DNA from: an uncultured Gemmatimonadales bacterium
Lineage (GTDB): Bacteria; Gemmatimonadota; Gemmatimonadetes; Longimicrobiales; Longimicrobiaceae
Direction: 5' to 3'
Assembly: GCA_963716255.1 (NCBI GenBank)
Contig: OY970303.1
Location: 96,001 to 160,000, forward strand
DNA: 64,000 nt
The notes under the pieces are model-generated. The model was not told the origin of the DNA, searched no databases, and saw only the letters and a program-made list of their open reading frames with translations. The position numbers and the translations under genes are program-made. Numbering within the stretch: position 1 is the stretch's first letter; each line of letters starts with the position of its first letter. This document shows, piece after piece, positions 345 to 61,045 of this stretch.

Positions 345-476
345 TCGGGCGTGCCCCCGGCTGGCGCCGGGGTCGGGCTTCGGCTCCGTTAAGCACGATA
401 CGACCGTGCTTAACGGAGTCGAGCCCCGGCAAACCGCCGCCGGGTCTCGCCCCTTCGGGCCGTAATCCCTCACGCG
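345..476 (+). repeat. Structured intergenic repeat family A, copy 1
   Basis: TCGGGCGTGCCCCCGGCTGGCGCCGGGGTCGGGCTTCGGCTCCGT...ACGGAGTCGAGCCC...GTCTCGCCCCTTCGGGCCGWAATCCCTCACGCG; nine copies in window. Confidence 0.95.
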
Positions 477-523
477 GTTGGGAGCGTGACCCCGGCCTGC
501 TGCCGTTGATTCCCACCGTTCGC

Positions 524-564
524 GAACGAGCCGCCCCGGCCGATGGCCGGGGCGGCTCTCGTTC
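524..564. terminator. GC-rich hairpin, possible terminator
   Basis: GAGCCGCCCCGGCC-GAT-GGCCGGGGCGGCTC inverted repeat; no clear U-tract. Confidence 0.4.
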
Positions 565-708
565 GTCGGGGACCCGGCTGCCGCATGCCGGCCCCCGATC
601 GTGGCGCTCTCCCCTCATCCTGTTGCGCGTCCACCACACTTTCGCGCGTCCCCGTGGGGGCTCCGCCCCACACCTCGCCGGCGCCGGCACCGTCGCCGTC
701 CCCCTCCC

Positions 709-751
709 CTGCAACGTTTCGTTGCATCCGCCGCTGCAAAGTTTCGTTGCA
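709..751. promoter_or_regulatory. Tandem palindromic operator/enhancer sites
   Basis: CTGCAACGTTTCGTTGCA (709-726) and CTGCAAAGTTTCGTTGCA (734-751), each TGCAA-N7-TTGCA. Confidence 0.55.
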
Positions 752-900
752 GATCCGGCGAAGATGGAAAACCGCGTTACAGCGACACACTCGGCTTTCC
801 GCGATTCGGAATCGCAGCGAATCGGTTTATTTCACCTCACGACGACACCTTCCAGCGCCTGCAAAACGCGAAATCCGGCTTTCCGACAATTCGGGATTCC

Positions 901-916
901 GGGTACACGCGTTGCC
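901..916 (+). promoter_or_regulatory. Putative sigma54 (-24/-12) promoter
   Basis: GGGTAC-ACGCG-TTGC vs consensus TGGCAC-N5-TTGC; GG-N10-GC spacing correct; 60 bp before ATG 976. Confidence 0.45.
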
Positions 917-975
917 ATGGTGTCCGGCATGGCGGACCGGTTCCCATCCCATCAAATCCCCCGAGGAGACGGACG

Positions 976-1593: not shown

Positions 1594-1633
1594 CCACCGG
1601 CCCCGCTCACCACGACAGGAAGCGAGAAGAACC

Positions 1634-1852: not shown

Positions 1853-1964
1853 ACGCCTCGGGGGCACGGCATCCCGCCGCCGCCCCCGTCCCGGGCCGAC
1901 GCGCACCTCCGCGCGCGGCCCACGCACCACCAGGCCCCGGCCCCACGCCGGAAGGATCGCCCAG

Positions 1965-4900
1965 ATGAGCCTCGTCAGCGCGGAAGCAGGCGCGACCGAC
2001 ACGTTCAGCGTGGAGCCGGGGTTCGACCTCCGCGGCCTCGCGCGGGACCCGCTCACCGACGCACTCCCCCGCGCGGCGTTCGAGGAGCAGCTGGAGCTGC
2101 ACCTGGAGCAGGCCCGCCTGCGGGGCGCGGCGCTGTCGCTCCTGGTGGTGGACCTGGACCACTTCAAGAGCATCAACGACGCGTTCGGGCACAGCCGCGG
2201 CGACGCCGTGCTGCGCGAGTTCGCCGAGCGCGTGCAGGGGATCATCCGGGGCTCCGACCTGCTCTTCCGCTACGGCGGCGACGAGTTCCTCCTGCTCCTC
2301 CCGGAAACCTCGCGCGAGCAGGCCGCGGTGCTGGCGCAGCGGCTCCTCACGCGCATCGGCGCCACGCCGTTCCCCGGCAACCCCGCCGTCTCCGTGTCGC
2401 TGAGCATCGGGGTGGCCAGCTTCCCCGAGGAGGCGCCCGGCGGGTTCGAGCTGTTCGAGCGCGCCGACCGCAGGGTGTACGAGGCGAAGCGCCGCGGCCG
2501 CTCGCGGGTGGTGAGCGACGACCAGGTGCGCCAGGAGACGGGAACGCTGGACCCGCCGGCCCGCCTCGTGGACCGGGAGGAGCCCATGCAGGCGCTGCAC
2601 GGCTTCCTCGCCGGGCTGCGCGAGGGGGGACGGGGCGCTCTGGCGGTGCTGGGCCCGCGCGGCGCGGGACGCACCCGTTTCCTGGCCGAGGCGCGCACCG
2701 CCGCCCTCCTGCAGGGCTACGAGGCCGTGGCGCTGCGCGGCACCCCGGCGCTCCGGGCCCGCGCCTTCGGGGCGCTGCGCGAGTCGCGGCGCGAGTTCCG
2801 CGAGGCGCTCCCGCACTCCCCCCGCGAGCTTGCGGCGCTGCTGGGCGAGATCCAGCGGGTGCGCGCGCGCTCCGGCGTGGTCCTGCTGCTGGACGACGTG
2901 CACGACGTGGACGAGGAGACGCTGGAGCTGCTGCGCGGGATCTTCGAGGGGTGCGACCTGCCGGTGGTGGGGGTGGTGTTCGCCGCCGCCGAGGCGCAGG
3001 CCGACGACCCGCACGCCTGGGAGGGCGAGGTCCGCGCCACCATCGCACTGCGGGAGCTGGGGTGGGAGGGGGTGCGCACCTGGACGCGCACCGTGCTGCG
3101 CTGGGAGCCGCCCGAGGAGCTGCTCGGCTGGCTGCGCCGCGAGACCGGCGGCCTCCCCGGCCGCATGCAGGCGGCGCTGGAGCTGCTGGTGGAGGAGCGG
3201 GCGCTGCAGCGCGCCGCGGACGGGTGGTCGCTGCGCGAGGGATACCAGGGGGTGCAGGTGCCGGCGGACCGCGGCCGGGGGGTCCACGGCGCGCTCCCCG
3301 CGGTGTCCACCAGCATCCTGGGGCGCGACGTGGAGATCGGCGAGGTCAAGCAGCTCCTGCGCGACGGGCGGCTGGTGACCCTCACCGGGCCCGGCGGCAT
3401 CGGCAAGACGCGGCTGGCGATCCAGGTGGCCGCGGAGCTGGCCGAGTCGGCGCCCGGCGGCGTGCACTTCGTGGAGCTGGCGCCGCTCGCCGCCCCGGAG
3501 TTCCTGGTGCCGGCCATCGCCGAGGCGGCCGGGCTCCAGCTCAGCGGCGGGAGCGCCCCCCGGCAGCAGCTCCTGGACTTCCTCCGCGACCGGCAGCTCC
3601 TCCTGGTGCTCGACAACTTCGAGCACCTGGTCGCCGGGGAGGAGCTGGTGGGCGACCTGCTCCGCGCCGCGCCGCGCGTCCGGGTGCTCGCCACCTCGCG
3701 CGAACGGCTCAACCTGCGCGAGGAGGCGGTCTACCCGCTGCGGGGGATGCCCATCCCCCGCGAGGGCGCCGATGCCTCGCCCGCGCACTCCATCGCCCTG
3801 CGGCTGTTCGCCAACCGCGCGCGCCGCCACGACGCCGCCTTCGTGATGGAGCCGGAGGACGTGGGGCACGTGGTGGACGTCTGCCGCATGCTGGGCGGGC
3901 TGCCGCTGGGGATCGAGCTGGCGGCGTCGCTGGTGCGCGTCCTTTCCTGCCGCGAGATCGCCGAGGAGGTGGCCCACAGCTTCGACGCGCTGAGCACGCC
4001 GCTGCGCGACTCGCCGTCGCAGCACCGCAGCCTGCGCGCCGTATTCGACTCGTCGTGGAACCTGCTGGACGCCCGCGAGCGCGACGCGCTGCGCCGCCTG
4101 GCGATGTTCCGCGGCGGCTTCCGCAAGGAGGCGGCGCAGCGCGTGGCCGGCGCCGGGGTGGGGGTGCTCGCCGCGCTGGTGGACAAGTCGCTGCTCACCC
4201 GGACGCCGGCGGGACGCTACCAGCTCCACGAGGTCTTCCGCGCCTACGGCGAGGAAAAGCTGCGCGAGGACGACCCGGCCCGCCGCGAGGCGGGGAGCCG
4301 CTGCTGCGCCTTCTACGCCGCCTTCCTGGCCGGGCGCGCGGGCGAGCTGGTGGGCCCGCGCCAGGCCGAGGCCCGCGCGGAGATCGGCGAGGAGGTGGAG
4401 AACGTGCGGGCTGGGTGGCAGTGGGCGGTGGAGAGCGCGGACGCGGAGGCGCTGGAGGCGTACGTGGAGCCGCTCTTCCGCTTCTACGCGGTGCGCAGCT
4501 GGTACCACGAGGGGGAAGGGCTCTTCGCCTCGGCGGCGGCGCGCGTGGAGCGCGGGACGCCGCTGTTCGCGCGGCTGATCGCCCGGCAGGGGTTCTTCCA
4601 CTCGCGGCTGGGCCGCTACGAGGAGGCGCGCGCGCTCCACCGCGAGAGCCTGGCGATCCTGCGCGCCGGCGGGGGCGCGGACGCGGCGCTCTCGCACTGG
4701 AGCCTGGGGAGCATCGCCCTCAAGCAGGGGCTGCGCAGGAGCGCGGTGCAGTCCTTCCGCCGGGGGCTGCGCCTGTACCGCGAGGCCGGCGACCGCGACG
4801 GGGTGGCGACCTGCCTCAACGAGATGGGGGCGGCGGCGCTGGCGGAGGGGCGCTGGGACGACGCCGAGCGCCTTTTCGCCCGCAGCCGCGGGCTGCGCGA

Positions 4901-5552
4901 GCGCCTGGGCGACCGCTCGGGGCTTGCCCACTGCGTCAACAACCTGGCGCTGGTGGCGGACGCGCTGGGGAGGCGCGAGGAGGCGCTGGAGCTGTTCCGC
5001 GAGAGCCTGCGCATCGCCCGGGAGGTGGGCGACCGGCGCAGCGGTGCCAACGCGCTCCACAACCTGGGCGTGTTCATGCGCCGCGACGCGGACGCGGCCT
5101 CCCCCGCGGCGTTCCGCGAGGCGAAGGCGCTGATCTCGGAGGCGCTGGAGGCGTACCGCGCCATCGGGGCGCAGGAGCAGGTGGCGCTGGCGCTCTACAA
5201 CCTGGCGGACGCGGCCTGCGCGCTGGGCCAGTTCGAGGAGGCCATGGAGCGCCACCGCGAGGCGCTGCGCATCGCGGTGCGCATGGAGGCCACGCCGCTG
5301 GTGCTGGGGATCCTGGCGGGGGTCGCCACCCTCCTGGCGGGCAACGGCGAGCGCGACTTTCCGCTGGAATTGCTGGCGCTGGTGTCGCGCCACCCCGCCG
5401 CCGACCGCGGCGTGCGGGAGCGCGCGGAGCGCTCGCTGGAAGCGCTGCGCTCCACGGTGGCGCCCGAGCGCTTCGCGGAGCTCTGCCGGCGCGCGGAGGG
5501 CCGCGCCGTCCGCGAGGTGCTCCCCGAGCTGATCGGCGCGGCGGCTGCCTGA
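1965..5552 (+). CDS. Diguanylate cyclase fused to degenerate AAA, STAND/NB-ARC-like ATPase and TPR array
   Basis: DLDHFKSINDAFGH and RYGGDEF; GPRGAGRT; GPGGIGKT, LLVLDNFEH, GLPLGIELAA; TPRs (NNLALV, HNLGV, YNLAD). Confidence 0.9.
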   Translation: MSLVSAEAGATDTFSVEPGFDLRGLARDPLTDALPRAAFEEQLELHLEQARLRGAALSLLVVDLDHFKSINDAFGHSRGDAVLREFAERVQGIIRGSDLLFRYGGDEFLLLLPETSREQAAVLAQRLLTRIGATPFPGNPAVSVSLSIGVASFPEEAPGGFELFERADRRVYEAKRRGRSRVVSDDQVRQETGTLDPPARLVDREEPMQALHGFLAGLREGGRGALAVLGPRGAGRTRFLAEARTAALLQGYEAVALRGTPALRARAFGALRESRREFREALPHSPRELAALLGEIQRVRARSGVVLLLDDVHDVDEETLELLRGIFEGCDLPVVGVVFAAAEAQADDPHAWEGEVRATIALRELGWEGVRTWTRTVLRWEPPEELLGWLRRETGGLPGRMQAALELLVEERALQRAADGWSLREGYQGVQVPADRGRGVHGALPAVSTSILGRDVEIGEVKQLLRDGRLVTLTGPGGIGKTRLAIQVAAELAESAPGGVHFVELAPLAAPEFLVPAIAEAAGLQLSGGSAPRQQLLDFLRDRQLLLVLDNFEHLVAGEELVGDLLRAAPRVRVLATSRERLNLREEAVYPLRGMPIPREGADASPAHSIALRLFANRARRHDAAFVMEPEDVGHVVDVCRMLGGLPLGIELAASLVRVLSCREIAEEVAHSFDALSTPLRDSPSQHRSLRAVFDSSWNLLDARERDALRRLAMFRGGFRKEAAQRVAGAGVGVLAALVDKSLLTRTPAGRYQLHEVFRAYGEEKLREDDPARREAGSRCCAFYAAFLAGRAGELVGPRQAEARAEIGEEVENVRAGWQWAVESADAEALEAYVEPLFRFYAVRSWYHEGEGLFASAAARVERGTPLFARLIARQGFFHSRLGRYEEARALHRESLAILRAGGGADAALSHWSLGSIALKQGLRRSAVQSFRRGLRLYREAGDRDGVATCLNEMGAAALAEGRWDDAERLFARSRGLRERLGDRSGLAHCVNNLALVADALGRREEALELFRESLRIAREVGDRRSGANALHNLGVFMRRDADAASPAAFREAKALISEALEAYRAIGAQEQVALALYNLADAACALGQFEEAMERHREALRIAVRMEATPLVLGILAGVATLLAGNGERDFPLELLALVSRHPAADRGVRERAERSLEALRSTVAPERFAELCRRAEGRAVREVLPELIGAAAA

Positions 5553-5572
5553 CGGGCCCCCGCGCCGGACCC

Positions 5573-5706
5573 CGCGTGAGGGATTTCGGCCCGGAGGGGC
5601 GAGACCCCGCGGGCAGTTTCGCGGGGGCTCGACTCCGTTGCAAACGGTAGTCTCGTTTGCTACGGAGCCGAAGCCCGACCCCGGCGACAGCCGGGGGCAC
5701 GCCCGA
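5573..5706 (-). repeat. Repeat family A, copy 2
   Basis: Reverse complement of family A consensus. Confidence 0.95.
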
Positions 5707-5823
5707 CCCCGCAGTTCAATGCCGCACCGGGCGCACAACATGCGTTCTCACGTTCCCGACCCCCTCCCGTAGAACCCATCCTCGACGTCCTTCCCGGTGC
5801 ACGTCCCCCGAACCACGATCCCC

Positions 5824-6854
<1,031 letters not shown>

Positions 6855-6858
<4 letters not shown>

Positions 6859-8573
6859 TCGCGTTCGAGAGCGGCGGCGCGGACCTGCACCCGGAGGTTC
6901 TGGAGCGGATCGAGGCCGGGCGCACGGCGGAGATGGGGGGGCGCCGCGAGGAGGCGCGCGACCACTACGAGGCCGCGCTGCACGCGCTGCGCACCCCGGT
7001 GCAGGCCCGCCTGGCGGCCACCATCATCCGCTGGATCGGCCGCACGCACCGCGCGGACGGGACCTTCGACGCGGTGGAGGACTGCGCCGAGGCGGCGCTG
7101 GCGATCTCCACCGCCTGCGACGACGCGGCGGGGACGGCGCACGCGCTCAACCTGCTGGGCGGGGCCAGCCAGCAGCGCGGCGAGCTGGAGAAGGCGGCGG
7201 AGCTGTTCCGCAGCGCCTACCAGCACGCGCAGGGGGTGGGCGACTACGAGCTGATCGCCATGACGCAGCTCAACCTGGGGGTGGTGGCGAACATCCAGGG
7301 GAACCTGCACGCGGCGCGGGAGCGCTACTCGGCGGCGCTGGACGGCTTCCGCGCCATGGGCAACGAGTCCAACGTCCCCTTCGTCCTCAACAACCTGGGG
7401 ATGCTGTACACGGACCTGGGCCAGTGGGAGGCGGCCGAGAGCCACTACGCGGACGCCATGGAGGTGTGCGCGCGAACCGGCAACGTGAGCGCGCGAATCA
7501 GCATCGAGGTGAACCGGGCGGAGCTGTCGCTGGCCCGCGACGACTTCGAGGGGGCACGCGCGTCGTGCGACGCGGCCTTCGAGCTGATCCAGCGCACCGG
7601 CGAGACGCGCGCGCTCGGCGACCTGCACAAGCACTACGGCATCCTCCACCGCGACACCGGCGAGCTGTGGCGCGCCGAGAACCACCTGGGGCGCGCGGCG
7701 GCCATCGCGGACGAGCGGCAGGACCTGCTCCTGGCGGCGGAAACGGCGCGCGAGCAGGCGGAGCTGTTCTGGCGGCAGCAGCGCAACCAGGACACGCTGC
7801 GCGCGCTGAACCGCGCGTACCGCTGGTTCACGCAGCTGCGCGCGCGCCGCGAGCTGGCGGACATCGACGGGCGCATGGCGACGCTGGAGGCCATGTTCCT
7901 GGAGATCGTGCACCGCTGGGGCGAGTCCATCGAATCGGCGGACGCGTACACGCAGGGGCACTGCATGCGCGTGGCGGACTATGCCTGCGCGCTCGCCGAG
8001 GAGGTCATGCGCCGCCGCGCGGACCACCCGGACCACGCGGGCGCCGAGGGGCTCAACGAGCAGACGCTGCTCTGGTTCCGGATGGGGGCGCTGCTGCACG
8101 ACGTGGGGAAGCTGGACGTGCCGGTGGCGGTGCTCAACAAGGCGGGGGCGCTGACGCCCGCGGAGCGCATCATCATGGAGCGCCACCCGGACGCGGGGGT
8201 GGAGCTGCTGGCGGACATCGAGTTCCCGTGGGACATCCGCCCCATGGTTCGGCACCACCACGAGCGCTGGTCGGGCGGCGGGTATCCCACCGGCGTCGCG
8301 GGCGAGGCCATCCCGCTCTCCGCGCGCATCCTGTGCATCGCGGACGTGTTCGACGCGCTCACCACCGACCGCCCCTACCGCCGCGGCTACTCCCCGGCGC
8401 AGGCGCTGGAGATCATGGGCGGCAGCATGCGCGAGCACTTCGACCCGGAGCTGCTGGGGCCGTGGGCGGAGATCTGCGCGCGGCTGTTCCCGGCGCCCGA
8501 GCCGGCGCCCGCGGTGGCGCCGACACCGGTGGCGGTGCCGTTCCGCGTGGCAGTCAGCCCGGTGCCCGCCTGA
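6855..8573 (+). CDS. TPR-containing HD-GYP phosphodiesterase
   Basis: ATGA overlap with upstream gene; TPRs; YTQGHCMRV, LLHDVGK, HHHERWSGGGYP, ADVFDALTTDRPYR. Confidence 0.9.
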
Positions 8574-13189: not shown

Positions 13190-13340
13190 TCGGGCGTGCC
13201 CCCGGCTGGCGCCGGGGTCGGGCTTCGGCTCCGTAAGCCCGCAAACAACGCGGGCTAACGGAGTCGAGCCCCGGCGGCAGCACCTCTGAACTGAGGTGCC
13301 CCGCCGGGTCTCGCCCCTTCGGGCCGAAATCCCTCACGCG
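13190..13340 (+). repeat. Repeat family A, copy 3 (extended hairpin)
   Basis: Consensus, with GCACCTC-TGAACT-GAGGTGC replacing the AAACWGCC loop. Confidence 0.95.
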
Positions 13341-13362
13341 GGCATCACGCTGGCGTCCGCGG

Positions 13363-14940: not shown

Positions 14941-15921
14941 ATGCAATACACGCAGCTCGGCGGCACCGGACTCACCGTTTCGCGCATCTGCCTGGGGTGC
15001 ATGAGCTACGGCAGCTCGCGGTGGAGGCCGTGGGTGCTGGACGAGGAGGAGTCGCGGCCGTTCTTCCGGCGGGCGGTGGAGGCCGGGATCAACTTCTTCG
15101 ACACGGCGGACATGTACTCGCTGGGGGCGAGCGAAGAGATCACCGGGCGGGCGCTGCGCGAGTACGCGAGCATGGACGAGGTGGTGCTCGCCACCAAGGT
15201 GTACTGGCCCATGGGCGAGGGGCCCAACCTGCGCGGGCTCTCGCGCAAGCACGTGGTGCAGGCGTGCGAGGCCAGCCTGCGGCGGCTGGGCGTGGACACC
15301 ATCGACCTGTACCAGATCCACCGCTTCGACGCGGCCACGCCCATCGAGGAGACGCTTGCGGCGCTGGACCAGCTGGTGAGGCAGGGCAAGGTGCGCTACG
15401 TCGGCGCGAGCTCGGGGTACGCCTGGCAGCTCGCGCGCGCGCTCTCCGCCGCGGAGCGCAGCGGCTGGGCGCGCTTCGTGTCCATGCAGAACCACTACAA
15501 CCTGGTGTACCGCGAGGAGGAGCGGGAGATGATCCCCCTCTGCCTGGCCGAGGGGCTGGGCGTGATCCCCTGGTCGCCGCTGGCGCGCGGGCTCCTGGCC
15601 CGCGGCGCGTCCGCCATGGCCGACCGCGCCGCCACCCCCCGCGCCGGCAGCGACGCCTACGCCGACCAGCTCTACGACTCCCCCGGCGACCGCGACGTGG
15701 TGGAGGCCAACCAGCGCGTCGCCGAGGCGCGCGGCGTGTCCCCCGCCGAGACCGCGCTCGCATGGCTGCTGGGCCGCCCGGGCGTGGCCGCGCCCATCGT
15801 CGGCGCGACGAAGCCGCACCACCTGGACGCCGCCCTCCGCTCGCTGGAGCTGACGCTCACCGACGACGAGCGCGCCGCGCTGGAGGCGCCCTACCAGCCG
15901 CACACGGTGAAGGGGCACTGA
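14941..15921 (+). CDS. Aldo/keto reductase
   Basis: LGGTGLTVSRICLGCMSYG, FFDTADMYS, IDLYQIHRFD, PWSPLARG. Confidence 0.93.
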   Translation: MQYTQLGGTGLTVSRICLGCMSYGSSRWRPWVLDEEESRPFFRRAVEAGINFFDTADMYSLGASEEITGRALREYASMDEVVLATKVYWPMGEGPNLRGLSRKHVVQACEASLRRLGVDTIDLYQIHRFDAATPIEETLAALDQLVRQGKVRYVGASSGYAWQLARALSAAERSGWARFVSMQNHYNLVYREEEREMIPLCLAEGLGVIPWSPLARGLLARGASAMADRAATPRAGSDAYADQLYDSPGDRDVVEANQRVAEARGVSPAETALAWLLGRPGVAAPIVGATKPHHLDAALRSLELTLTDDERAALEAPYQPHTVKGH

Positions 15922-16043: not shown

Positions 16044-16178
16044 GCGTGAGGGATTTCGGCCCGAAGGGGCGAGACCCGGCGGGGCTGTTTCCGCCGGGTC
16101 TCGACTCCGTTGGGCTGCGTTGTTTGCAGCCCTACGGAGCCGAAGCCCGACCCCGGCGCCAGCCGGGGGCACGCCCGA
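16044..16178 (-). repeat. Repeat family A, copy 4
   Basis: Reverse complement of consensus. Confidence 0.95.
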
Positions 16179-28311: not shown

Positions 28312-29109
28312 ATGGCGGCTGAGGGGGCGTACCTGGGCGGGCGGCACGCGGTGGTGACCGGCGGCGGGCGGGGGATCGGGGCCGCCGTCGCGGAGGAGCT
28401 GGCGCGCCTGGGGGCGGCGCTCACCCTCATGGGGCGCGACGGGGCGCGCCTGGAGGCGCGCGCGCGCGAGGTCGCCGCGCGCCACGGCGCGCGCGTGGAG
28501 GCGGTCGCGTGCGACGTGGCGGACGACGTGTCCGTGGCGGCGGCGTTCGCCGCCGCGCGGGAGCGCTCCGGCGAGGTGCACGTGCTGGTCAACAACGCGG
28601 GGCAGTCGGAGGGCGTCGCCTTCGGCGAGACCACGCGCGAGACCTGGGACCGGATGCTCGCGGTGAACCTCACGGGGGTCTTTCTGTGCACGCAGCAGGT
28701 GCTCCCGGGCATGCTGGAGGCGCGCTCCGGCCGCATCGTCAACGTCGCGTCCACCGCGGGGCTGCGCGGGTACTCGCGCACGGCGGCCTACACCGCGGCG
28801 AAGCACGGCGTCGTCGGCCTCACCCGCGCCCTCGCGCTGGAGACCGCCAAGCGCGGCATCACCGTGAACGCCGTCTGCCCCGGCTACACCGAGACGGACA
28901 TGGCGCAGTCCGCCGTGGACACCCTGGTGCGGGCGCGCGGCATCACCGCGGACGAGGCCCGTGCGATGATCGCGCGCCCCATCCCCCGCGGCACGCTGAT
29001 CCTCCCCGAGGAGGTGGCCAACGCGGTGGGGTGGCTGTGCTCGCCGGGGGCGTCGGCCGTGACCGGGCAGGCGATCGTGGTGGCGGGGGGAGAGGTGATG
29101 GCGGGGTGA
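28312..29109 (+). CDS. Short-chain dehydrogenase/reductase
   Basis: TGGGRGIG, NNAG, YTAAK, NAVCPG. Confidence 0.93.
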   Translation: MAAEGAYLGGRHAVVTGGGRGIGAAVAEELARLGAALTLMGRDGARLEARAREVAARHGARVEAVACDVADDVSVAAAFAAARERSGEVHVLVNNAGQSEGVAFGETTRETWDRMLAVNLTGVFLCTQQVLPGMLEARSGRIVNVASTAGLRGYSRTAAYTAAKHGVVGLTRALALETAKRGITVNAVCPGYTETDMAQSAVDTLVRARGITADEARAMIARPIPRGTLILPEEVANAVGWLCSPGASAVTGQAIVVAGGEVMAG

Positions 29110-29110
29110 G

Positions 29111-29637: not shown

Positions 29638-29671
29638 GCGCACGGCACCCGAAGACAAACCACGATCCGAC

Positions 29672-30517: not shown

Positions 30518-30649
30518 TCGGGCGTGACCCCGGCTGGCGCCGGGGTCGGGCTTCGGCTCCGTAAGCGAGCAAACAACGCTCGCTAACGGAGTCGAGCCCC
30601 GGCAAACTGCCGCCGGGTCTCGCCCCTTCGGGCCGTAATCCCTCACGCG
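30518..30649 (+). repeat. Repeat family A, copy 5
   Basis: Matches consensus. Confidence 0.95.
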
Positions 30650-33560: not shown

Positions 33561-33692
33561 TCGGGCGTGCCCCCGGCTGGCGCCGGGGTCGGGCTTCGGC
33601 TCCGTAACGCACGATAAAACTGTGCGTAACGGAGTCGAGCCCCGGCAAACTGCCGCCGGGTCTCGCCCCTTCGGGCCGTAATCCCTCACGCG
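33561..33692 (+). repeat. Repeat family A, copy 6
   Basis: Matches consensus. Confidence 0.95.
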
Positions 33693-34916: not shown

Positions 34917-35050
34917 TCGGGCGTGCCCCCGGCGGGCGCCGGGGTCGGGCTTCGGCTCCGTAAGCGAGCAAACAACGCTCGCTAACGGAGTCGAGCCCCC
35001 GCGAAACTGCCCGCGCGGTCTCGCCCCTTCGGGCCGAAATCCCTCACGCG
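34917..35050 (+). repeat. Repeat family A, copy 7
   Basis: Matches consensus. Confidence 0.95.
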
Positions 35051-39712: not shown

Positions 39713-39848
39713 TCGGGCGTGCCCCCGGCTGGCGCCGGGGTCGGGCTTCGGCTCCGTAAGGCAGCAAACAACGCTGCCTAACGGAGTCGAGCCCCGGCGC
39801 AAACAGCCCCGCCGGGTCTCGCCCCTTCGGGCCGAAATCCCTCACGCG
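39713..39848 (+). repeat. Repeat family A, copy 8
   Basis: Matches consensus. Confidence 0.95.
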
Positions 39849-39927: not shown

Positions 39928-40246
39928 CTACCCCGCCGCCCCCACCAGCGCGTCCAGCCGCTTCGCCGAGAACCCGGCCGTCGCGCGGTCCCCTGCGACC
40001 ACCACGGGCCGCGTGATGAAGGTGTACTCCTCCTCCATCAGCCGCAGCATCTCGTCCTCGGACACCTCGTGCTCGTGCAGCCCCATGGCGCGGTACTTCA
40101 TGGCGCGCCGCGAGAACAGCTTGTCGGGCCCGCCGACGAAGTCCGCCAGCCGCCGCACTTCGTCGGCCGGGAGGCGGTCGGTCTTGAGCGGTCGACGGCC
40201 ACGCCCCTGCCCTCCAGGTACGCGACGGCCTTCTGGCAGGGGGTGC
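39928..40246 (-). pseudogene. 5'-truncated, frameshifted duplicate of ArsC/Spx-family gene
   Basis: Near-identical to ~50229-50538 but lacks the first ~10 codons and has a 10-bp deletion (GTCGTGGAAG). Confidence 0.88.
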
Positions 40247-44052: not shown

Positions 44053-47000
44053 ATGGCACAGACGTACCCTCTGGATCGGGTGATCCGCAAGGTCCCGCCG
44101 GGCGGCGCCACGGCGGACGCGCAGCGGATCGTGACCGTGCTCGTCGGAGAGCGGACGGTGGTGCCTCGCAGGCCGTTCCCGTGGAGTGACGTGCAGTACT
44201 TCCTCGTCTCCCACCACGGCGACCCCACCCACCAGTGCCGGGTGGAGATCCCGGCCGTCGCCCTGGCGGACCTGGACGAGCAGGTGGAAGTGTCCGTGAA
44301 CCTGCTGGTCAACTGCCCGCCGGGTGACGAGGCGCGGGTGACCCTGGCGCTGTTCGACCCGGTGGACGCCCCGCACGCGATGCTGGAGCGGCACGTGGTC
44401 CGCTGCCTCCGCGACCTGGGCCAGGCCGACGTGGGCGCGTTCACGCGGCGATTCTTCGCCGATCCGGCTGCCGTCCAGCAGGACCTCGCCGAGGCGCTAG
44501 CGCGCGGTACGGGGCTGCGCGTCCACGCCCGGCTCTCGCTGGACCAGGGTCCCGACCGCGACGTGGTGCGCGTGGAGGTGGCCCACCTCGCCGTCCTGGC
44601 CGCCGACTGGGACGAGGAGCAGGACCTGGCGATCCGGGTCGACCTCGAGGTGGACGACGCTGGCTTGGCCGACGCCGTCCTGAGCCGGGCGCGGATGCCG
44701 GAGCTGAACGTCATCGTGCCCCGGGAGATCCGCGCCTTCGTGCGGCGGCGGATCTCGCTCGCGGAGCTCCCGAGGATCGGCGCCGGGGCGGCCAGGCAGG
44801 CGCTGGTGAGCCACCTCGACGACGTGCTGCGCCCGCTCGGACGGCGCGTGGGCGCCCTGGTGCTGCAGCCCGCGAACGTGCAGGGAGCTCCCCCGGACCA
44901 GCTTGCCGTCCTGGAAGTGGTGGACGTGCCCTGCACCGTGCGGGAGTATCCCAGGCCCGTCACGATCGCGAACCGGGTGCTCCTGCGGGTGGTGGACCTG
45001 GTGAGGTATCGCGGCGAGGCGTCGCCCGAGCTGCGCACGTGGCTGCGCGATACGCTGAACCGGCTGGTCCCGGAGACCCTGTTCGAGGCGCGCTACACGG
45101 ACCTGCTGCTGCGATTCGATCGCTGGGAGGAGCGGATCAAGCAGGCCGTACGCGCGGCGGCGGAGGGAATCGGGTGCGAGATCAGCCAGTTCATCACCGA
45201 TCCCGACCTCCCCGAGAAGATTCTCGTCAAGCCGTTCGTCATCCGCACCGAGGGGGCCTTCGAGACCCGGCTGCACGGCGTGGACGCGAAGCTGGAGGTG
45301 GTGGTCACGGCGCGCATCCCCCGCCTGGAAGACATCGCCTCGCTCCTCGCCCGGGAGCCCGACATCCCCCGCGCCATGGAAGAAGCCGTCCGCACCGCCC
45401 TGGAGGCGCGGATGCACGCGCTGCACCCCGAGCGCTTCTACATGCGGTTCGGCTTCGCCGACCCGGTGCGCCACGCCGAGGAGACGCAGTCGGTGGAAGC
45501 GGAGCTGATGGAGCACGTGGAACGCCGGCTCACGGAGGGCGAGTTCCACGCCGAGGTCGTCGGAACCGTCATCAAGATCGTGGAAACGGACCTCATCCGC
45601 CGCTTCCGCGAGCTGCAGGAGGCTACCCCCGACTTCGTCCTGCGCGTGGAGTCGCTCGACGCGGAGGTGGTGGATTTCGCCGCCAACCTCCGGGTGGGAG
45701 CCGTGCACTACGACGGCTGGCAGCGGTTCCGCGTCCTGACCGGCGGAATCGAGCAGATCACCGCTAGGGTGCGGGACCAGGTGGACACCGTGCTCCACAC
45801 CCTCCCCGCCGCGGAGCTGCTCTATCAGGGCGAGGCGGAGCGGAGCGCGCTGGAGGCCCGGGTGTCCGCGGCCGTACTGCAGTACGCCGCCGAGCAGTTC
45901 GGCCTCGTGGTGCACCTGGCCAATTTCCGCCGCACCCGCACGGAGAGCGAAACCGCGTACCACGCCACCCTGCGCGGCGAGTGGCAGCGCGAGGCAGAGG
46001 CCCGCGCGCGGCTCCAGGAAACCGCCGTCGGCGCCAGGCTCAACGAGTACGCTGGCATGGCCGCGGCCATTGAGCGGCTGACGGAGCGGTGCACTGAGCT
46101 GTACGGGGTGGAGGGTGAAGAGAAGGAGCTGGCGCGGGTGGAGCGCGAGATCGCCGCGCTCTCGTCGCGCCTGCGCGAACACTCCCGGCTCCCGCTGGAC
46201 GCGGGTCCAGACCGCGACGTGGTGCGGGTGGAGATGGCCCACCTTGCCGTCTTCGCCTCCGACTGGGACGAGGAGCAGGGCCTGGCGATCCGGATCGACC
46301 TCGAGTTGGGCGACACCGGACGGGCCGACGTCGTCCTGAGCCGCGCGCGGCTGCCGGACCTGCACGCCATCGTGCCCCGGGAGATCCGCGCCTTCGTGCG
46401 GCGGCAAATCTCGCTCGCGGAGTTCCCCAAGATCGGAGCGGGGGAGGCCAGGCAGGCGCTGGTGAGCCACCTGGACGAAGTGCTGCGCCCCCTCGGACGG
46501 CGCGTGGGCGCCCTTGTGCTGCAGCCCGGGAACGTGCTGGCGGCGCCTCAAGACCAGCCGTCCGTCCTGGAAGTGGTGGACGTGCCCTGCACCGTGCGGG
46601 AGTATCCCAGGCCCGTCACGATCGCGAACCGGGTGCTCCTGCGGGTGGTGGACCTCGTGAAGTATCGCGGCGAGGCGTCGCCCGAGCTGCGCACGTGGCT
46701 GCGCGATACGCTGAACCGGCTGGTCCCGGAGACCCTGTTCGATGCGTGCTACACGGACCTGCTGCTGCGATTCGATCGCTGGGAGGAGCGGATCAAGCAG
46801 GCCGTTCACGCCGCGGCGGAGAGAATCGGGTGCGAGATCAGCCAGTTCATCACCGATCCCGACCTCCCCGAGAAGATTCTCGTCAAGCCGTTCGTCATCC
46901 GCACCGAGGGGGCCTTCGAGACCCGGCTGCACGGCGTGGAGGCGAAGCTGGAGGTGGTGGTCACGGCGCGCATCCCCCGCCTGGAAGACATCGCCTCGCT

Positions 47001-47982
47001 CCTCGCCCGGGAGCCCGACATCCCTCGCGCCATGGAAGTGGCCGTCCGCACCGCGATCGAGGTGGGGATGCACACGCTGCACCCCGAGCGCTTCTACATT
47101 CGGTTCGGCTTTGCCGACCCGCTGCGCCACGCCGAGGAGACGCAGTCGGTGGAAGCGGAGCTGATGGAGCTCGTGGAACGCCGGCTCACGGAGGGCGAGT
47201 TCCACGCCGAGGTCGTCGGCACCGTCATCAAGATCGTGGAACCGGACCTCATCCGCGGCTTCCGCGAGCTGCAGGAGGCTACCCCCGACTTCGTCCTGCG
47301 CGTGGAGTCGCTCGACGCGGAGGTGGTGGATTTCGCCGCCAGCCTCCGGGTGGTGGCCGTGCACAACGACGGCTGGCAGCGGTTCCGCGTCCTGACCGGC
47401 GGTATCGAGCAGATCACCGCCAATGTGCGGGACCAGGTGGACACCGTGCTCCACACCCTCCCCGCGGCGGAACTGCTCTACCAGGGCGAGGCGGAGCGGA
47501 GCGCGCTGGAGGCCCGGGTGTCCACGGCCGTGCTGCAGTACGCCACCGAGCAGTTCGGCCTCGTGGTGCGGCTGTCCAATTTCCGCCGCACTCGCACGGA
47601 GAGCGAAACCGCGTACCACGCCACCCTGCGCGGCGAGTGGCAGCGCGAGGTGAAGACCCACGCACGACTCCAGGAAGCCGCCGCTGGCGCCCGGCTCAAC
47701 GAGTACGTCGGCATGGCCGCGGCCATCGAGCGGCTGACGGAGCGGCGCACCGAACTGTACGGAGTGGAGGGCGAGGAGGAGGAACTGGAGCGGGTGGAGC
47801 GCGACATCGCCGCGCTCGAGTCGCGCATGGGAACGGTGCCCGCTGCCTCCGCCGCGCAACTGCGCAGGCGGGCCAGCGGGACGGCCGCGGTGGACCGGGC
47901 GTTCCCCGCCGGGGCGGCCGTGGACGCGGTGGATCTAGTGTACGAAGGCGAGCCGGAGGCCGCGCCGACGGTCGAGTCATGA
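44053..47982 (+). CDS. Multi-SPFH/band-7-like protein with 552-aa internal duplication
   Basis: 1656-bp period DNA duplication; repeated beta-beta-alpha-alpha-G-beta units followed by coiled coil; SPFH assignment inferred. Confidence 0.7.
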   Translation: MAQTYPLDRVIRKVPPGGATADAQRIVTVLVGERTVVPRRPFPWSDVQYFLVSHHGDPTHQCRVEIPAVALADLDEQVEVSVNLLVNCPPGDEARVTLALFDPVDAPHAMLERHVVRCLRDLGQADVGAFTRRFFADPAAVQQDLAEALARGTGLRVHARLSLDQGPDRDVVRVEVAHLAVLAADWDEEQDLAIRVDLEVDDAGLADAVLSRARMPELNVIVPREIRAFVRRRISLAELPRIGAGAARQALVSHLDDVLRPLGRRVGALVLQPANVQGAPPDQLAVLEVVDVPCTVREYPRPVTIANRVLLRVVDLVRYRGEASPELRTWLRDTLNRLVPETLFEARYTDLLLRFDRWEERIKQAVRAAAEGIGCEISQFITDPDLPEKILVKPFVIRTEGAFETRLHGVDAKLEVVVTARIPRLEDIASLLAREPDIPRAMEEAVRTALEARMHALHPERFYMRFGFADPVRHAEETQSVEAELMEHVERRLTEGEFHAEVVGTVIKIVETDLIRRFRELQEATPDFVLRVESLDAEVVDFAANLRVGAVHYDGWQRFRVLTGGIEQITARVRDQVDTVLHTLPAAELLYQGEAERSALEARVSAAVLQYAAEQFGLVVHLANFRRTRTESETAYHATLRGEWQREAEARARLQETAVGARLNEYAGMAAAIERLTERCTELYGVEGEEKELARVEREIAALSSRLREHSRLPLDAGPDRDVVRVEMAHLAVFASDWDEEQGLAIRIDLELGDTGRADVVLSRARLPDLHAIVPREIRAFVRRQISLAEFPKIGAGEARQALVSHLDEVLRPLGRRVGALVLQPGNVLAAPQDQPSVLEVVDVPCTVREYPRPVTIANRVLLRVVDLVKYRGEASPELRTWLRDTLNRLVPETLFDACYTDLLLRFDRWEERIKQAVHAAAERIGCEISQFITDPDLPEKILVKPFVIRTEGAFETRLHGVEAKLEVVVTARIPRLEDIASLLAREPDIPRAMEVAVRTAIEVGMHTLHPERFYIRFGFADPLRHAEETQSVEAELMELVERRLTEGEFHAEVVGTVIKIVEPDLIRGFRELQEATPDFVLRVESLDAEVVDFAASLRVVAVHNDGWQRFRVLTGGIEQITANVRDQVDTVLHTLPAAELLYQGEAERSALEARVSTAVLQYATEQFGLVVRLSNFRRTRTESETAYHATLRGEWQREVKTHARLQEAAAGARLNEYVGMAAAIERLTERRTELYGVEGEEEELERVERDIAALESRMGTVPAASAAQLRRRASGTAAVDRAFPAGAAVDAVDLVYEGEPEAAPTVES
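44539..47830 (+). repeat. Intragenic tandem duplication, unit 1656 bp
   Basis: 44539 and 46195 both begin CTGGAC...GGTCC.GACCGCGACGTGGTGCG; long identical runs between units. Confidence 0.95.
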
Positions 47983-50212: not shown

Positions 50213-50569
50213 TCACCTCCCGGCCAGGAGCGCGTCCAGCCGCTTCGTGGAGAACCCGGCCGTCGCGCGGTCCCCTGCGACCACCACGGGCCGCGTGATG
50301 AAGGTGTACTCCTCCTCCATCAGCCGCAGCATCTCGTCCTCGGACACTTCGCGCTCGTGCAGCCCCATGGCGCGGTACTTCATGGCGCGCCGCGAGAACA
50401 GCTTGTCGGGCCCGCCGACGAGGTCCGCCAGCCGCCGCACCTCGTCGGCCGGGAGGCGGTCGGTCTTGAGGTCGTGGAAGCGGTCGACGGCCACGCCCCT
50501 GCCCTCCAGGTATGCGACGGCCTTCTGGCAGGTGGTGCAGTACGGCAGCCCGTAGACGGTTACGCCCAT
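50213..50569 (-). CDS. ArsC/Spx/YffB family protein
   Basis: VTVYGLPYCTTCQKA and FITRPVVV..GFS. Confidence 0.88.
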   Translation of the reverse strand: MGVTVYGLPYCTTCQKAVAYLEGRGVAVDRFHDLKTDRLPADEVRRLADLVGGPDKLFSRRAMKYRAMGLHEREVSEDEMLRLMEEEYTFITRPVVVAGDRATAGFSTKRLDALLAGR

Positions 50570-53824: not shown

Positions 53825-53936
53825 GTCGTCCTACGCCGGTTGGGAGTACCTCGTGGTAGGTTCACGCCGCGAGGCGATCCAGCGAATCGAGCAGGACGAG
53901 GATGGCCGGGCTGCGGCCCTGCCGGGGGACTACCGG

Positions 53937-57649: not shown

Positions 57650-57943
57650 GGTGCACCGAGCCGGGTCCGGAGGAGAGGGAGGGATGCCGGAGGCCGCGAC
57701 CGGCAGCGGGTGCCGTTGCGGCTTCGGGGGGGCACCGCACTTCTTTTCCGAAGCATCTGCTACATGATCGGTACGCCGATCCTTTCCGGCAAGAAAACTT
57801 TTGTCTCGAAATCATCTTCCGGCAGACACTTAGGGGAACTGGCGTTTGAAACACCGCTCTTGATCGGACACTCCTCGGTGCCTATCATCGTCCAGCAGCA
57901 GCTCCATCGTCCATCCCCGTCCCCGTCCCCGCGAGGTTCCCCC

Positions 57944-60061
57944 GTGCGCCTCATCCCCGCTCCCCCCGCCCTGGCCGTGCTCGCCGCCCTGGCCGCCGCC
58001 CCGCTCGCCGGGCAGGCCGCGGGCGACACGGCCCGGGCCGACACCGTCCGGACCCATGCGCTGGAGGCGGTGGTGGTGACGGCCGCGCGGGTGCCGGCGC
58101 CGCTTGCCACCTCCACGGCGGCGGTCGCCGTGCTGCCGGGTCCTGCGCTGCGGCGGCTCCCCGCGCGCGGCCTGGGAGACGCCCTGCGCTTCGCGCCGGG
58201 CGTCTCGGTCATCGACGTGGACGGGGCGGGGGGCGACACGCGGATGACCGTGCGCGGCTTCTACGGCGGGGGAGAGGCCGACTACGTGACCCTGCTGGTG
58301 GACGGCAAGCCCGCCGCGGCGCCGCACACCGGCGTGGCCGACTGGGAGCTACTGCCGCTGGCGGCGGTGCGGCAGGTGGAGGTGCTGCGCGGCGGGGCGT
58401 CGTCGCTCTACGGCAACGCCGCGGTGGCGGGCGTGGTGAACGTGATCACCGAGACGAGTCCGGGATCGCGCAGCCTGCGCGCCACGGCGGGCGGTGACGG
58501 CGCGCTGCAGCTTTCCACGGCGGCGGCGGTGCGGGCGGCCGGGAAACCCGTGCGGGGATGGACCAACTTCCTCCGCGCCGACGGATTCCGCGACCACGCG
58601 CGGCGGGAATCGCTGGGCGCGGGGCTCACGGCGGGGGTACTGGAGCGCCCGGAAGCGTCGCTCTCGCTTTCGGCCGTGCACCGGCGCCGGGAGCTGCGCG
58701 ACCCCGGTCCGCTTACCGAGCCCGCGCTGGCCCTCTCACGCACCGGCGCGTCGCCGCTCTACCGCTTCGACCGCACGTCCGAGGCGCTCTCCCGCGTGTC
58801 GCTCGACGCCCGGCGCGAGGCGGGCCGGGCGCGCCTCTCGGGGTACGTGGCGGGTGAGACGCGCGGTGCCGGCGTGACCCGCACCGTGGTGCTCGCGCCA
58901 GACTTCGCCGACACCAAGCGCCGCAACCTGCACGCGCGACGCCTGCTGGCCTCGGTCCAGGCCGACGTGCCCGGGCCGCGTGCCCTGGGGGAGAGCAGGG
59001 TGACGGCGGGGCTCGATGGCGGGGCCGAGTGGATGTCCTCGGACTACTGGGCCCTGCTGGCCGGCAACGCGGATACGTACCGCGCCGCCGCCGCGCCCGG
59101 CGCGGGAACGCGCGACGAGGGAGGCCGCGCCGTGCGGACCGGGGCGGCGGGGTTCGTTCGGTGGGAGCTGCAGCCGGTGGAGCGGGTGCGGGTGTCGCTG
59201 GGAGGACGGCTCGACGGGCTTCGTGACGCGTGGACTCCGCGCGCGCCCTCCACGGCGGAGGCGTCGGAGGCGCGGCACACGGCGTTCAGCCCACGCGGGG
59301 GGGTCAACGCGCAGTATGCACGCACACCGGGGCGCGAGGGGTGGGTGTTCGCCGGCGTGGGGCGCTCGTTCAAGGCGGCCACTCCCGACCAGCTCTTCGA
59401 CCGGCGCACGCTGCCGGTGCCCTTCCCGCCCTTCCGGGTCACCCTCAGCAACCCGGAGCTCCGGCCGCAGCACGGGACGGGGTGGGAGGGCGGCGTGTAC
59501 CAGCGCGCCGCGCTGCCGCGGGCGCTGGAGGCGTGGCTGTCGGTGGCGGCGTACCAGATGGACATGCGCGACGAGCTGGACTTCGACCTGGCCACCCTCC
59601 GCTACGTGAACCTGGGCCGCAGCCGCCACCGCGGCGTGGAGGCGGCGGTGAACCTGGCCGGAGCGGGGGGATGGAGCGCCTTCGCCAACTACACGCTGCA
59701 GCACGCAGTCTCGCGGCTGGGCGAGAGCCGCGGACTGCAGCTCAAGGCGGTCCCGCGGCACACGCTGGTCGCCGGCGTGGACGCGCCGGTGGCGCTGGGC
59801 GCGGCGGGCGCGCTGACGGCGACCCGCGTGCGCGGCGCGTGGCTCGACGACGCCAACACCCGGCGCCTGCCCCCCTGGACGCGGGTGGACGCTCGGCTCA
59901 CCGTTCCCGTGGCCGGGATGCGGCTGTGGGTGGAGGGCTTCAACCTGCTGGACCGCGAGTACAGCACCACGGGCTTCCCTGACTCCGCGGTACCGTCCGT
60001 CTTCTACTACTACCCGGCCGCGGGCCGGTCGCTGCAGCTCGGCCTGGAGGTGGGGCGGTGA
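57944..60061 (+). CDS. TonB-dependent receptor
   Basis: Signal peptide, EAVVVTA TonB box, VRGF, VEVLRGGASSLYG..AGVVNVIT, NLLDREY, GRSLQLGLEV. Confidence 0.92.
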   Translation: MRLIPAPPALAVLAALAAAPLAGQAAGDTARADTVRTHALEAVVVTAARVPAPLATSTAAVAVLPGPALRRLPARGLGDALRFAPGVSVIDVDGAGGDTRMTVRGFYGGGEADYVTLLVDGKPAAAPHTGVADWELLPLAAVRQVEVLRGGASSLYGNAAVAGVVNVITETSPGSRSLRATAGGDGALQLSTAAAVRAAGKPVRGWTNFLRADGFRDHARRESLGAGLTAGVLERPEASLSLSAVHRRRELRDPGPLTEPALALSRTGASPLYRFDRTSEALSRVSLDARREAGRARLSGYVAGETRGAGVTRTVVLAPDFADTKRRNLHARRLLASVQADVPGPRALGESRVTAGLDGGAEWMSSDYWALLAGNADTYRAAAAPGAGTRDEGGRAVRTGAAGFVRWELQPVERVRVSLGGRLDGLRDAWTPRAPSTAEASEARHTAFSPRGGVNAQYARTPGREGWVFAGVGRSFKAATPDQLFDRRTLPVPFPPFRVTLSNPELRPQHGTGWEGGVYQRAALPRALEAWLSVAAYQMDMRDELDFDLATLRYVNLGRSRHRGVEAAVNLAGAGGWSAFANYTLQHAVSRLGESRGLQLKAVPRHTLVAGVDAPVALGAAGALTATRVRGAWLDDANTRRLPPWTRVDARLTVPVAGMRLWVEGFNLLDREYSTTGFPDSAVPSVFYYYPAAGRSLQLGLEVGR

Positions 60062-60131
60062 CCGGCGGGGAGGGGGGCGGGCCTTCGATCCGCCCCGGCC
60101 CCTCGCGTCCATCCCGCCGCGGAGCGCGCAA

Positions 60132-60860
60132 ATGAGGCGCTGCCTCGTGGTCTTCCTGCTGGTCTGCGCCGCCCCGCTGGTGATGTTCGCGGCGGCATCG
60201 GCACTGGGCGTCTCCGTGCTGGACGACCCATCGGCGCTGCCGGGCGGCGGCGGAGCGGGTACCGCGCTGGTCACCACGGGGCTGCTCGTGGCGGACGTGC
60301 TCATCCCCGTTCCCTCCAGCCTGCTGATGATCGCCAACGGGGCGTTCTTCGGCGTCACGGGCGGGACGGCGCTATCGCTGGCCGGAGGGGTGGGCGCGGC
60401 GGCGCTGGGCTGGGCGCTGGGGCGCCGGGGCACGCGCTCGGCGGAGCGCTTCGTCCACGCCGGGGAGAGGGCGCGGGCCGTCGCGCTGGTGGAGCGCTGG
60501 GGCGCGCTGGCGGTGATCGCTTCGCGCCCGGTGCCGATCCTGGCGGAGGCGGTGGCGATCGCCGCCGGGCTGGCCGGGATGCGCTTCGGGCGCCTGGTGG
60601 GCTCCTCGCTCGCGGGAAGCGTTCCCGCGGCCCTCCTGTACGCGCTGACGGGCGCCCACGCCGCGCGGCTGGACAGCGTCCCGCTCGTCTTCGGCCTGGT
60701 GCTGGCGACGGCCGGAGGGGCGTGGTGGATCGGCAGCCGCGCTGGCTCCGGCGAGCGTGCAGGCACGATGTCGACACCGACGTCGCAGCCCAGCGCGGCA
60801 CCGGCCGCACCCGTTCCGGCTCTCCCTCCGCCGGCGCCGGGGCCTTTGCGCAGGCGGTGA
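60132..60860 (+). CDS. VTT/TVP38/DedA-family membrane protein
   Basis: LLVADVLIPVPSS and SRPVPILAE. Confidence 0.85.
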   Translation: MRRCLVVFLLVCAAPLVMFAAASALGVSVLDDPSALPGGGGAGTALVTTGLLVADVLIPVPSSLLMIANGAFFGVTGGTALSLAGGVGAAALGWALGRRGTRSAERFVHAGERARAVALVERWGALAVIASRPVPILAEAVAIAAGLAGMRFGRLVGSSLAGSVPAALLYALTGAHAARLDSVPLVFGLVLATAGGAWWIGSRAGSGERAGTMSTPTSQPSAAPAAPVPALPPPAPGPLRRR

Positions 60861-60913
60861 GGATCCGTGCGAGTGAGGCTGCGGGGAGGGGACCGGGGGA
60901 GGGGGCCCGCCGT

Positions 60914-61045
60914 CGCGTGAGGGATTCCGGCCCGGAGGGGCGAGACCGCGCGGCTGTTTGCGCGGGCTCGACTCCGTTACGCACGGTCGTTTCGTGCGTT
61001 ACGGAGCCGAAGCCCGACCCCGGCGCCAGCCGGGGGCACGCCCGA
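60914..61045 (-). repeat. Repeat family A, copy 9
   Basis: Reverse complement of consensus. Confidence 0.95.

Follow-up and report, generated by a model that had tools for sequence, protein, structure and literature searches.

A high-copy branched repeat in a Longimicrobiaceae genome and its relatives on conjugative plasmids and in other phyla

The 64,000-nt stretch of DNA analyzed here (the window; contig OY970303.1, positions 96,001 to 160,000 of the forward strand, assembly GCA_963716255.1) belongs to an uncultured Gemmatimonadales bacterium of the family Longimicrobiaceae and carries nine copies of a repeat of approximately 130 nt, each situated near the end of a gene. All nine copies that had been listed in a previous reading of the sequence (the original prediction) were present, six on the + strand and three on the − strand (Table 1). 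The 7-bp stem of each copy, which varies in sequence while its pairing is kept, matched the earlier list, including the single G-T pair in the copy at 33561, and the loop closed by this stem was 7 nt long in 9/9 copies. Eight copies begin 8–36 nt past the stop codon of a gene that reads in the same direction (distances of 21, 36, 14, 12, 24, 18, 24, and 8 nt), and the ninth (5573–5706, −) is antisense, 20 nt behind a + stop codon. The orientation in which the copies were first read is referred to below as the original orientation, and its complement as the opposite strand.

A profile of the nine window copies gave 854 matches in the 8.42-Mb single-contig genome, of which 802 were full length, amounting to 1.3% of the genome. 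The repeat was abundant in 8/8 other genomes of the genus. Elsewhere in the family, 3/16 genomes had a few matches, and a single marginal match was obtained from 16 genomes of the order. The named records that share the repeat are from Longimicrobiaceae or Gemmatimonadota. Three stretches of 225–333 kb (genome 4876961–5209629, 2196040–2444217, and 6499294–6724327) hold no full copy.

Placement was determined relative to 5,355 genes predicted with our own codon-model caller, which misses short genes. Convergent, tandem, and divergent spacers contained 286, 471, and 43 copies, respectively, and two copies lay within called genes. The rule that a copy follows a stop codon in the sense of the gene held for eight of the nine window copies but was weaker genome-wide: 538 of 800 intergenic copies were so placed, most of them within 10–45 nt of the stop, and no clear sense bias was observed between co-oriented genes (252 sense vs. 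219 antisense; 238 vs. 214 once spacers longer than 600 nt were dropped). The tight spacing from stop codons reflects the polarity of the element: in 249/269 convergent cases, the closer of the two gene ends is met by the 5′ end of the original orientation, which carries a short flank rich in AC(G/T/A)GC. The AC(G/T/A)GC motif is approximately 6-fold enriched upstream of copies. These upstream flanks (e.g., window 324–346) consist of short irregular AC(G/T/A)GC runs and T-tracts, share their motif with the loop of one of the hairpins described below (M), and differ between orthologous sites.

The secondary structure was parsed in 727 of the 854 matches, the other 127 being divergent, truncated, or interrupted; matches of this remainder that scored below 95 bits were inspected individually. 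The element, approximately 130 nt long, adopts a predicted branched fold of six helices. In the original orientation, a terminal helix of 5 bp closes a three-way junction that holds a first hairpin and a long-range helix, and the long-range helix in turn closes a four-way junction with the V hairpin (which contains the stem first described), the M hairpin (the second stem), and a small hairpin. The hairpins are imperfect and have fixed mismatches. One copy folded far better than its shuffles (z −5.8, 0/200). The description as a structured repeat with the placement of repetitive extragenic palindromic (REP) sequences was borne out. In a 46-pair structure of 33 copies from several genomes, 96.8% of cells were paired and 18/46 pairs were changed on both sides (0/500 shuffles), a result to be read with the fact that the structure was derived from the same family of sequences. 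Rare variants also back the pairing over long distances: in eight copies the terminal helix is altered on both of its arms at once, and a T-to-G change is matched by an A-to-C change 83 nt away in most carriers. The 3′ loop had been described as a cUNCGg tetraloop. It is instead a triloop, since 34/727 parsed copies alter both flanking C/G positions in the 3-nt-loop register.

The nature of the folding strand was examined from loops, folding energies, and mispairs. On the opposite strand, the loop of the small hairpin is GAA, GGA, or GCA closed by C-G in 716/727 copies. For the first hairpin, 619/727 copies have a loop of the form c(GNA)g or c(GNNA)g on this strand. Loops of the c(GNA)g and c(GNNA)g types are unusually stable in DNA, and GNYA differs from the GNRA loop of RNA. 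When 150 copies were folded, the long-range helix was part of the minimum-energy fold in 139 (opposite strand) and 100 (original orientation) cases as DNA and in 34 and only 16 cases, respectively, as RNA. Mispairs in V comprised 22 G-T and 28 A-C, indicating no wobble preference and no G-U excess on either strand. Because of the folding, the wobble counts, and the absent sense bias in tandem spacers, single-stranded DNA (ssDNA) is favored over RNA, and the models make it quite probable that the fold forms in DNA of the strand opposite to the original orientation. The original prediction of a structured RNA read in the sense of the gene was not upheld, as the loops, the folding, and the orientation counts all point to DNA of the other strand.

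A structured RNA of 3′ untranslated regions, serving as a stabilizer, processing site, or ribozyme, would fit the 538 copies behind a sense stop, their short distance from it, and the strong RNA folding, and relatives of the repeat are filed in Rfam as small RNA (sRNA). We nevertheless consider such an RNA improbable, given the near-equal sense and antisense counts in tandem spacers, the lack of a G-U excess, and loops of the GNA and GNYA types rather than UNCG or GNRA. Strand bias with respect to transcription, G-U tolerance, and RNA-type loops, which would be expected of a structured noncoding RNA, were all lacking. A search of sequencing runs listed no RNA run with the sequence and none that contained half of its words.

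Table 1. Copies of the repeat in the window and anatomy of the first copy (window positions; strand in the original orientation).
Feature	Position	Strand	Remark
Copy 1 core	347..475	+	original orientation; predicted folding strand is the opposite one
Copy 1 V helix	383..419	+	constant outer stem, A.A mismatch position, variable 7-bp stem 391-397/405-411, 7-nt loop 398-404
Copy 1 M helix	420..449	+	constant outer stem with C.T mismatch, variable tip; outer stem common to plasmid copies
Copy 1 small hairpin	451..459	+	3-nt loop 454-456; c(GAA)g on opposite strand
Spacer from stop codon to copy 1	324..346	+	contains AC(G/T/A)GC motif
Copy 2	5574..5704	-	antisense, in spacer between two + genes
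Copy 3	13192..13339	+	M tip longer
Copy 4	16044..16176	-	
Copy 5	30520..30648	+	site also occupied in relatives G001, G008, and G005; in the pairs shown for G001 and G005, V allele different
Copy 6	33563..33691	+	site also occupied in G001, V allele different
Copy 7	34919..35049	+	site also occupied in G001, V and M alleles different
Copy 8	39715..39847	+	
Copy 9	60915..61043	-	

The variation of the stems proved to be that of a shared allele pool. Thirteen alleles account for 702/722 V stems, and the V alleles of this genome recur in relatives. The assortment of V is independent of that of M and almost independent of the scaffold; distant scaffold variants remain linked. Linkage was computed on 655 copies, or 622 after removal of one 33-copy subfamily. 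Paired columns 10–121 nt apart were linked at a normalized mutual information of 0.74–0.98, and columns 3–16 nt apart in different helices gave 0.11 or less, with one exception of 0.24. These results demonstrate that linkage tracks base pairing and not distance. Ordinary tract conversion alone predicts the opposite pattern, and local conversion was rejected, as neighboring copies share alleles at chance level. The claim of a covarying stem was therefore only half sustained: the column-linkage test demonstrates that pairing is kept by more than copy drift, but the variants are the 13 shared alleles moved between copies and not independent compensatory changes.

Orthologous sites were compared with three relatives, designated G001, G008, and G005. 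The comparison with G001 covered 654 kb in 55/840 contigs, whole or in part, and both flanks were mapped for 62/118 copies. Synteny was found at 41 sites, of which 37 were occupied in both genomes (approximately 94% flank identity). V was identical in 12/35 parsed pairs (4.5 expected by chance) and M in 8/35 (4.7 expected); in G008, V was identical in 1/21 pairs (0.9 expected). In G005 (420 kb, 30 contigs), 4/8 syntenic sites were occupied in both genomes, and 16/16 parsed copies, including those at three orthologous sites, carry a scaffold type that is rare in the present genome, which is concerted evolution in place. Since linkage follows pairing and orthologous copies change allele in place, helices are likely exchanged between copies, and orthologous copies mostly stay put but switch allele.

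It could be argued that the repeat is real but its helix shuffling is an artefact of assembly: the assemblies of relatives are fragmented, and many of their contigs end at copies (47/118 in G001). This is very improbable, because in a single-contig genome rare variants separated by 83 and 121 nt keep their linkage over the shuffled helices, so that phase is kept over the whole element, and G005 displays the same pattern. The kept long-range linkage argues that the shuffling within the present genome is not an assembly effect.

Linkage nested by helix is also what would be expected of a folded-ssDNA recombination site, attC-like in logic but branched, at which a recombinase trades strands within a helix, so that all that is distal to its cut is swapped and the chromosome or plasmid cassettes are occasionally rearranged. 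Synteny breaks occurred at copies in 9/60, 7/26, and 4/14 element junctions of three relatives (raw counts, uncorrected for background), two Bacteroidota loci have gene blocks bounded by partial duplicates, and recombination between the CUP repeats of IncN plasmids is reported in passages of PMC5371602. However, breaks in fragmented assemblies may be misjoins, and replichore polarity at the breaks is random. Ends of the form RYYYAAC ... GTTRRRY and arrays, both typical of attC sites, were not found, the AAC/GTT order is the reverse of that in attC, and an integron integrase was absent here and above the cut-off in only 2/9 genomes of the genus. A recombination site of this type is consequently regarded as quite unlikely.

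The original prediction had also suggested an element resembling REP sequences or miniature inverted-repeat transposable elements (MITEs). A MITE-like element was not supported: the ends of the repeat pair over 5 bp only, no target duplication was present at the one clean empty site (five inspected), and empty sites in relatives were not frequent, as the G001 comparison indicates. REP sequences share with the repeat an intergenic location, mostly in convergent and tandem spacers, a high copy number, and the role of insertion-sequence target. A REP/REPIN-type element would be kept by an HUH (RAYT-like) nuclease, lost or unrecognized here, that cuts the A-rich loop and the flank motif and swaps helices between copies. 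The imperfect hairpins with fixed mismatches, the approximately 300/722 V stems that begin with GTAG, and the AC(G/T/A)(G/A)C motif found in both variable loops and the upstream flank would all agree with this explanation. However, no Y1 transposase, RAYT, or integron integrase was detected in this single-contig, 96.7% complete genome, and thus no RAYT (Y1 HUH) gene flanked by the repeat. Y1/RAYT searches were likewise negative in 4/5 relatives, the fifth giving one 158-aa match. No recurring gene was found between copies when N-termini were read for 110 close copy pairs, and GIY-YIG matches were confined to open frames of at least 390 aa. The unit is furthermore a 130-nt branched fold, where REP units are short palindromes with a GTAG or CGTC foot, and the polarity of the plasmid copies described below would be left unexplained. 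Such a nuclease-kept element is therefore unlikely.

Insertion sequences of three unrelated types enter the element. An integrase-core insertion sequence lies at one base in the M stem (8/8 copies of its ends), a Tn5-like one in the M loop (4/4), and one of DDE_4 type in the V loop (1/1); since the ends were defined on copies lying within the element, diverged copies elsewhere would be missed. We take their families to be IS481, IS4, and IS5. The three types, together with a 300-nt non-autonomous derivative of one of them, were seen only at fixed element positions (genome 3217500, 4403600, 1756300, 4228300, 7602650, and 443300).

Relatives of the repeat were sought beyond the phylum. A pattern of its two ends retrieved at least 124 loci in Bacteroidota, spirochaetes, an actinobacterium, a myxobacterium, one Firmicutes-labeled bin, and Gemmatimonadota. 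The middle motif, which is absent from the search pattern, was found in 60/61 copies from outside Gemmatimonadota (57/12,200 in shuffles), and the 3′ 11-mer occurred 1 to 1,395 times in 38 of the genomes that hold such loci (control, 0–4). The highest number, in the 4.5-Mb Saprospiraceae genome G074, represents a second, independent mass expansion. A profile of the 61 relatives ranked the nine window copies first (E 0.01–0.45; next match, 6.2). Genes between paired copies in other phyla encode no common protein, and the paired copies in two genomes are parts of larger duplications. At two Bacteroidota loci (stretches 2255–6274 and 2336–7436), a full copy and a partial 3′ duplicate bracket a gene block in an integration-site-like manner.

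On the strand opposite to the original orientation, 4/20 of the relative loci pass the gathering score of the Rfam model Flavo-1 (RF01705; 42 bits). The window copies possess the conserved ends and the junction motif of the sequences that pass, and themselves score below 42 bits. Rfam searches gave no match for the window, for one copy at E values up to 10, or for RF01705 across the genome. Flavo-1 was described as an RNA motif of Bacteroidetes (Weinberg, 2010, in passages of PMC2864571). According to passages of PMC9723704 (Guerin, 2021), Flavo-1 matches in Flavobacterium psychrophilum are found on both strands of transcripts, and many fall in untranscribed DNA, which is a further point against an RNA of 3′ untranslated regions; passages of PMC13700133 and PMC9029176 merely list the motif. 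A literature search, in which few subscription papers were covered, returned nothing on this repeat in Longimicrobium and nothing linking Flavo-1 to plasmids or ssDNA.

The actinobacterial copies precede a ParB-like gene within a 44-kb unit that is itself repeated, and plasmids were therefore searched. With one plasmid copy as query, 1,420/72,556 plasmid records were matched, 192 of them over 80% of the query length; many of the matches are partial, and 1,251 of the records are typed as conjugative, a raw count uncorrected for the background share of conjugative records. Phage records yielded six weak matches among 50,697, viral contigs one match only, a Bacteroidota-type copy used as query no plasmid match, and Rfam searches of six plasmid-type loci three weak unrelated matches only. 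A covariance model from 33 copies of the present lineage gave full-length matches (best, 58 bits, E 3e-8) among 30 plasmid loci that had been preselected by similarity. In an IncN plasmid, the model matched five times within the leading region, always on the same strand. A short form of 85–100 nt with minimal V and M tips is widespread on plasmids. Copies were found on IncN, PromA, and Ti-type plasmids and also on pIPO2T and pTer331, and in two IncN leading regions five and four copies stand at the upstream ends of long direct repeats. The claim that the repeat is undescribed thus stands insofar as no Rfam family matches the window copies, but its relatives match Flavo-1 and sit inside the repeats of IncN leading regions. 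A small divergent subfamily of the present genome combines the plasmid-type junction sequence with local V and M loops (genome 619733, 1510838, 1512199, 4299557, 5455106, 6138799, and 7798363).

The plasmid copies have a consistent polarity. A relaxase, mobC, or coupling-protein gene fixes the side of the origin of transfer (oriT) in 8/23 fetched plasmid stretches, and in 8/8 of these the copy lies on the leading side, on the far side of the oriT inferred from gene order, and points towards oriT. The polarity holds also where both neighboring genes lie on the other strand. Many other plasmid copies precede ardC-type, parB-type, or ssb genes. According to passages of Samuel (2024; PMC11541004), the transferred strand can serve as template for the transcription of genes in the leading region, so that the strand with GNA loops would be the transferred one. 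Among 26 plasmid copies, 61/89 triloops are GNA on that strand and one on the other. Comparison by eye revealed neither similarity to known Frpo/ssi sequences nor −35/−10 boxes in the stem. In an IncFII plasmid, a look-alike of the inner V, M, and hairpin part was seen by eye at 7950–8045 of the stretch, just upstream of a Frpo-like stretch before ssb, and again near 4560–4660 and 15800–15900; by eye, the same sequence also ends two low-certainty Frpo candidates of PMC11541004. Motif searches of this kind also recover ssDNA structures, as passages of PMC5737381 describe.

These results suggest that the repeat is a real DNA-level branched element, a new chromosomal variant of a family that includes the Flavo-1 relatives and an unnamed transferred-strand element of plasmids. 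The occurrence of the same core in Bacteroidota, spirochaetes, and conjugative plasmids is a new finding of this analysis. Our preferred reading, to which we give an even chance, is that the repeat is an 800-copy chromosomal member of a cross-phylum family also carried on conjugative plasmids and that it would act as a folded ssDNA signal on the transferred strand, priming second-strand synthesis or early transcription. It is about equally plausible either way that the plasmid copies offer a host enzyme a platform there, for priming or as a promoter. We lean slightly towards an origin of the chromosomal copies from a plasmid copy, followed by spread in the manner of REP sequences. With similarly slight preference, fixed copies would then have been overwritten by ectopic recombination, in which pairing would survive as both hairpin arms move together in heteroduplex, whereas long-range helices left with mismatches are either corrected or purged. 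A broader scenario is put forward as tentative and rather doubtful: a branched ssDNA signal, with which the transferred strand of MOBF, MOBP, and MOBQ plasmids would initiate second-strand synthesis or early expression once in a new host, may repeatedly have escaped to chromosomes (Bacteroidota, spirochaetes, and Longimicrobiaceae, up to approximately 1,400 copies), enzyme-less and exchanging helices between folded copies, with the Flavo-1 RNA being one arm of it.

Several observations weigh against the reading as a transferred-strand signal that shuffles its helices as DNA. No protein partner was found, as stated above. The eight scorable plasmids form about three related groups (Ti-type, mobC-type, and IncN) and were hand-picked from the top matches, with oriT inferred. 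The GNA excess is weak in Bacteroidota-type copies (10/35 triloops vs. 2 on the other strand), and RNA folding favors the opposite strand just as DNA folding does. With the replication origin placed by GC skew only, the lagging-strand bias on the chromosome is also weak (252 vs. 200 in tandem spacers, 134 vs. 135 in convergent spacers, and 405 vs. 357 overall; P 0.09). Moreover, 21/62 G001 copies join flanks that are apart in the present genome, which may represent real crossovers or misassembly, and some allele switches could likewise be misassembly because the G001 and G008 assemblies are fragmented. Finally, the turnover of scaffold positions is similar in rate to that of V (kappa 0.2–0.36 vs. 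0.25). Mismatch repair sparing only hairpin heterologies was rejected on this ground, although MutS is present, and hundreds of sites would have to be under selection or subject to structure-guided repair.

Should the preferred reading be correct, a defined 85–90-nt candidate would be available for the entering-strand signal of broad-host-range plasmids without a Frpo look-alike, an sRNA family of Rfam (Flavo-1) would be reassigned to DNA and tied to plasmids, and an origin could be offered for a class of bacterial interspersed repeats without RAYT. The 800 copies also constitute a natural experiment in which linkage follows base pairing and not distance, and they serve as a warning that covariation among repeat copies need not imply RNA or independent compensatory change.

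Other features were noted in the window and the genome. A gene for a 125-aa DUF559 endonuclease-domain protein (29188–29565, +) lies between inverted copies of a second repeat family (29106–29176 and 29573–29643), which is also present at 13358, 15917, and 53597. The gene has close homologues in 8/9 genomes of the genus, and the arrangement is REP/RAYT-like with a different nuclease; DUF559 was rejected as partner of the present element as it is flanked by this different repeat. The sole reverse transcriptase of the genome (520 aa) stands beside an open reading frame for a membrane-protein-like product (positions 952–2514 and 2400–3182 of the stretch that holds them) and looks like a defense module; it was rejected as partner after a check confined to its neighborhood. 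The window further contains a 247-nt duplication with 97% identity (39942–40188 and 50224–50470) and an internal repeat with a 1,656-nt period (44510–47530).

Compared with known systems, the repeat resembles REP/BIME and REPIN-RAYT elements as high-copy intergenic DNA hairpins with a preference for convergent spacers, within-genome homogenization, and targeting by insertion sequences. It differs from REPIN-RAYT in its 130-nt branched fold, its occurrence as single copies, the RAYT that was not found, and its plasmid homologues with transfer polarity. With attC sites, as described in passages of PMC5737381, it shares a folded ssDNA form, a constant base with a variable tip, and a frequent position just behind a stop codon, but its core triplets are reversed, it is branched, and arrays and integrase are absent. 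The plasmid match is confined to the folded part of 85–90 nt, whereas on the chromosome the V and M tips are longer and the copies number 800. The likeness to Frpo/ssi, judged from passages of PMC11541004, lies in the transferred strand, the leading region, and the position upstream of ssb, ardC-type, and parB-type genes. CUP repeats are described in the IncN leading region as ArdK-controlled promoters (passages of PMC5371602 and PMC6289460), and the IncN copies, each at the start of a long direct repeat, appear to stand where CUP repeats have been placed. Flavo-1 (RF01705) models one 76-nt arm only, whereas the present copies also contain a four-way junction from which the V and M helices branch, and they appear to behave as DNA.

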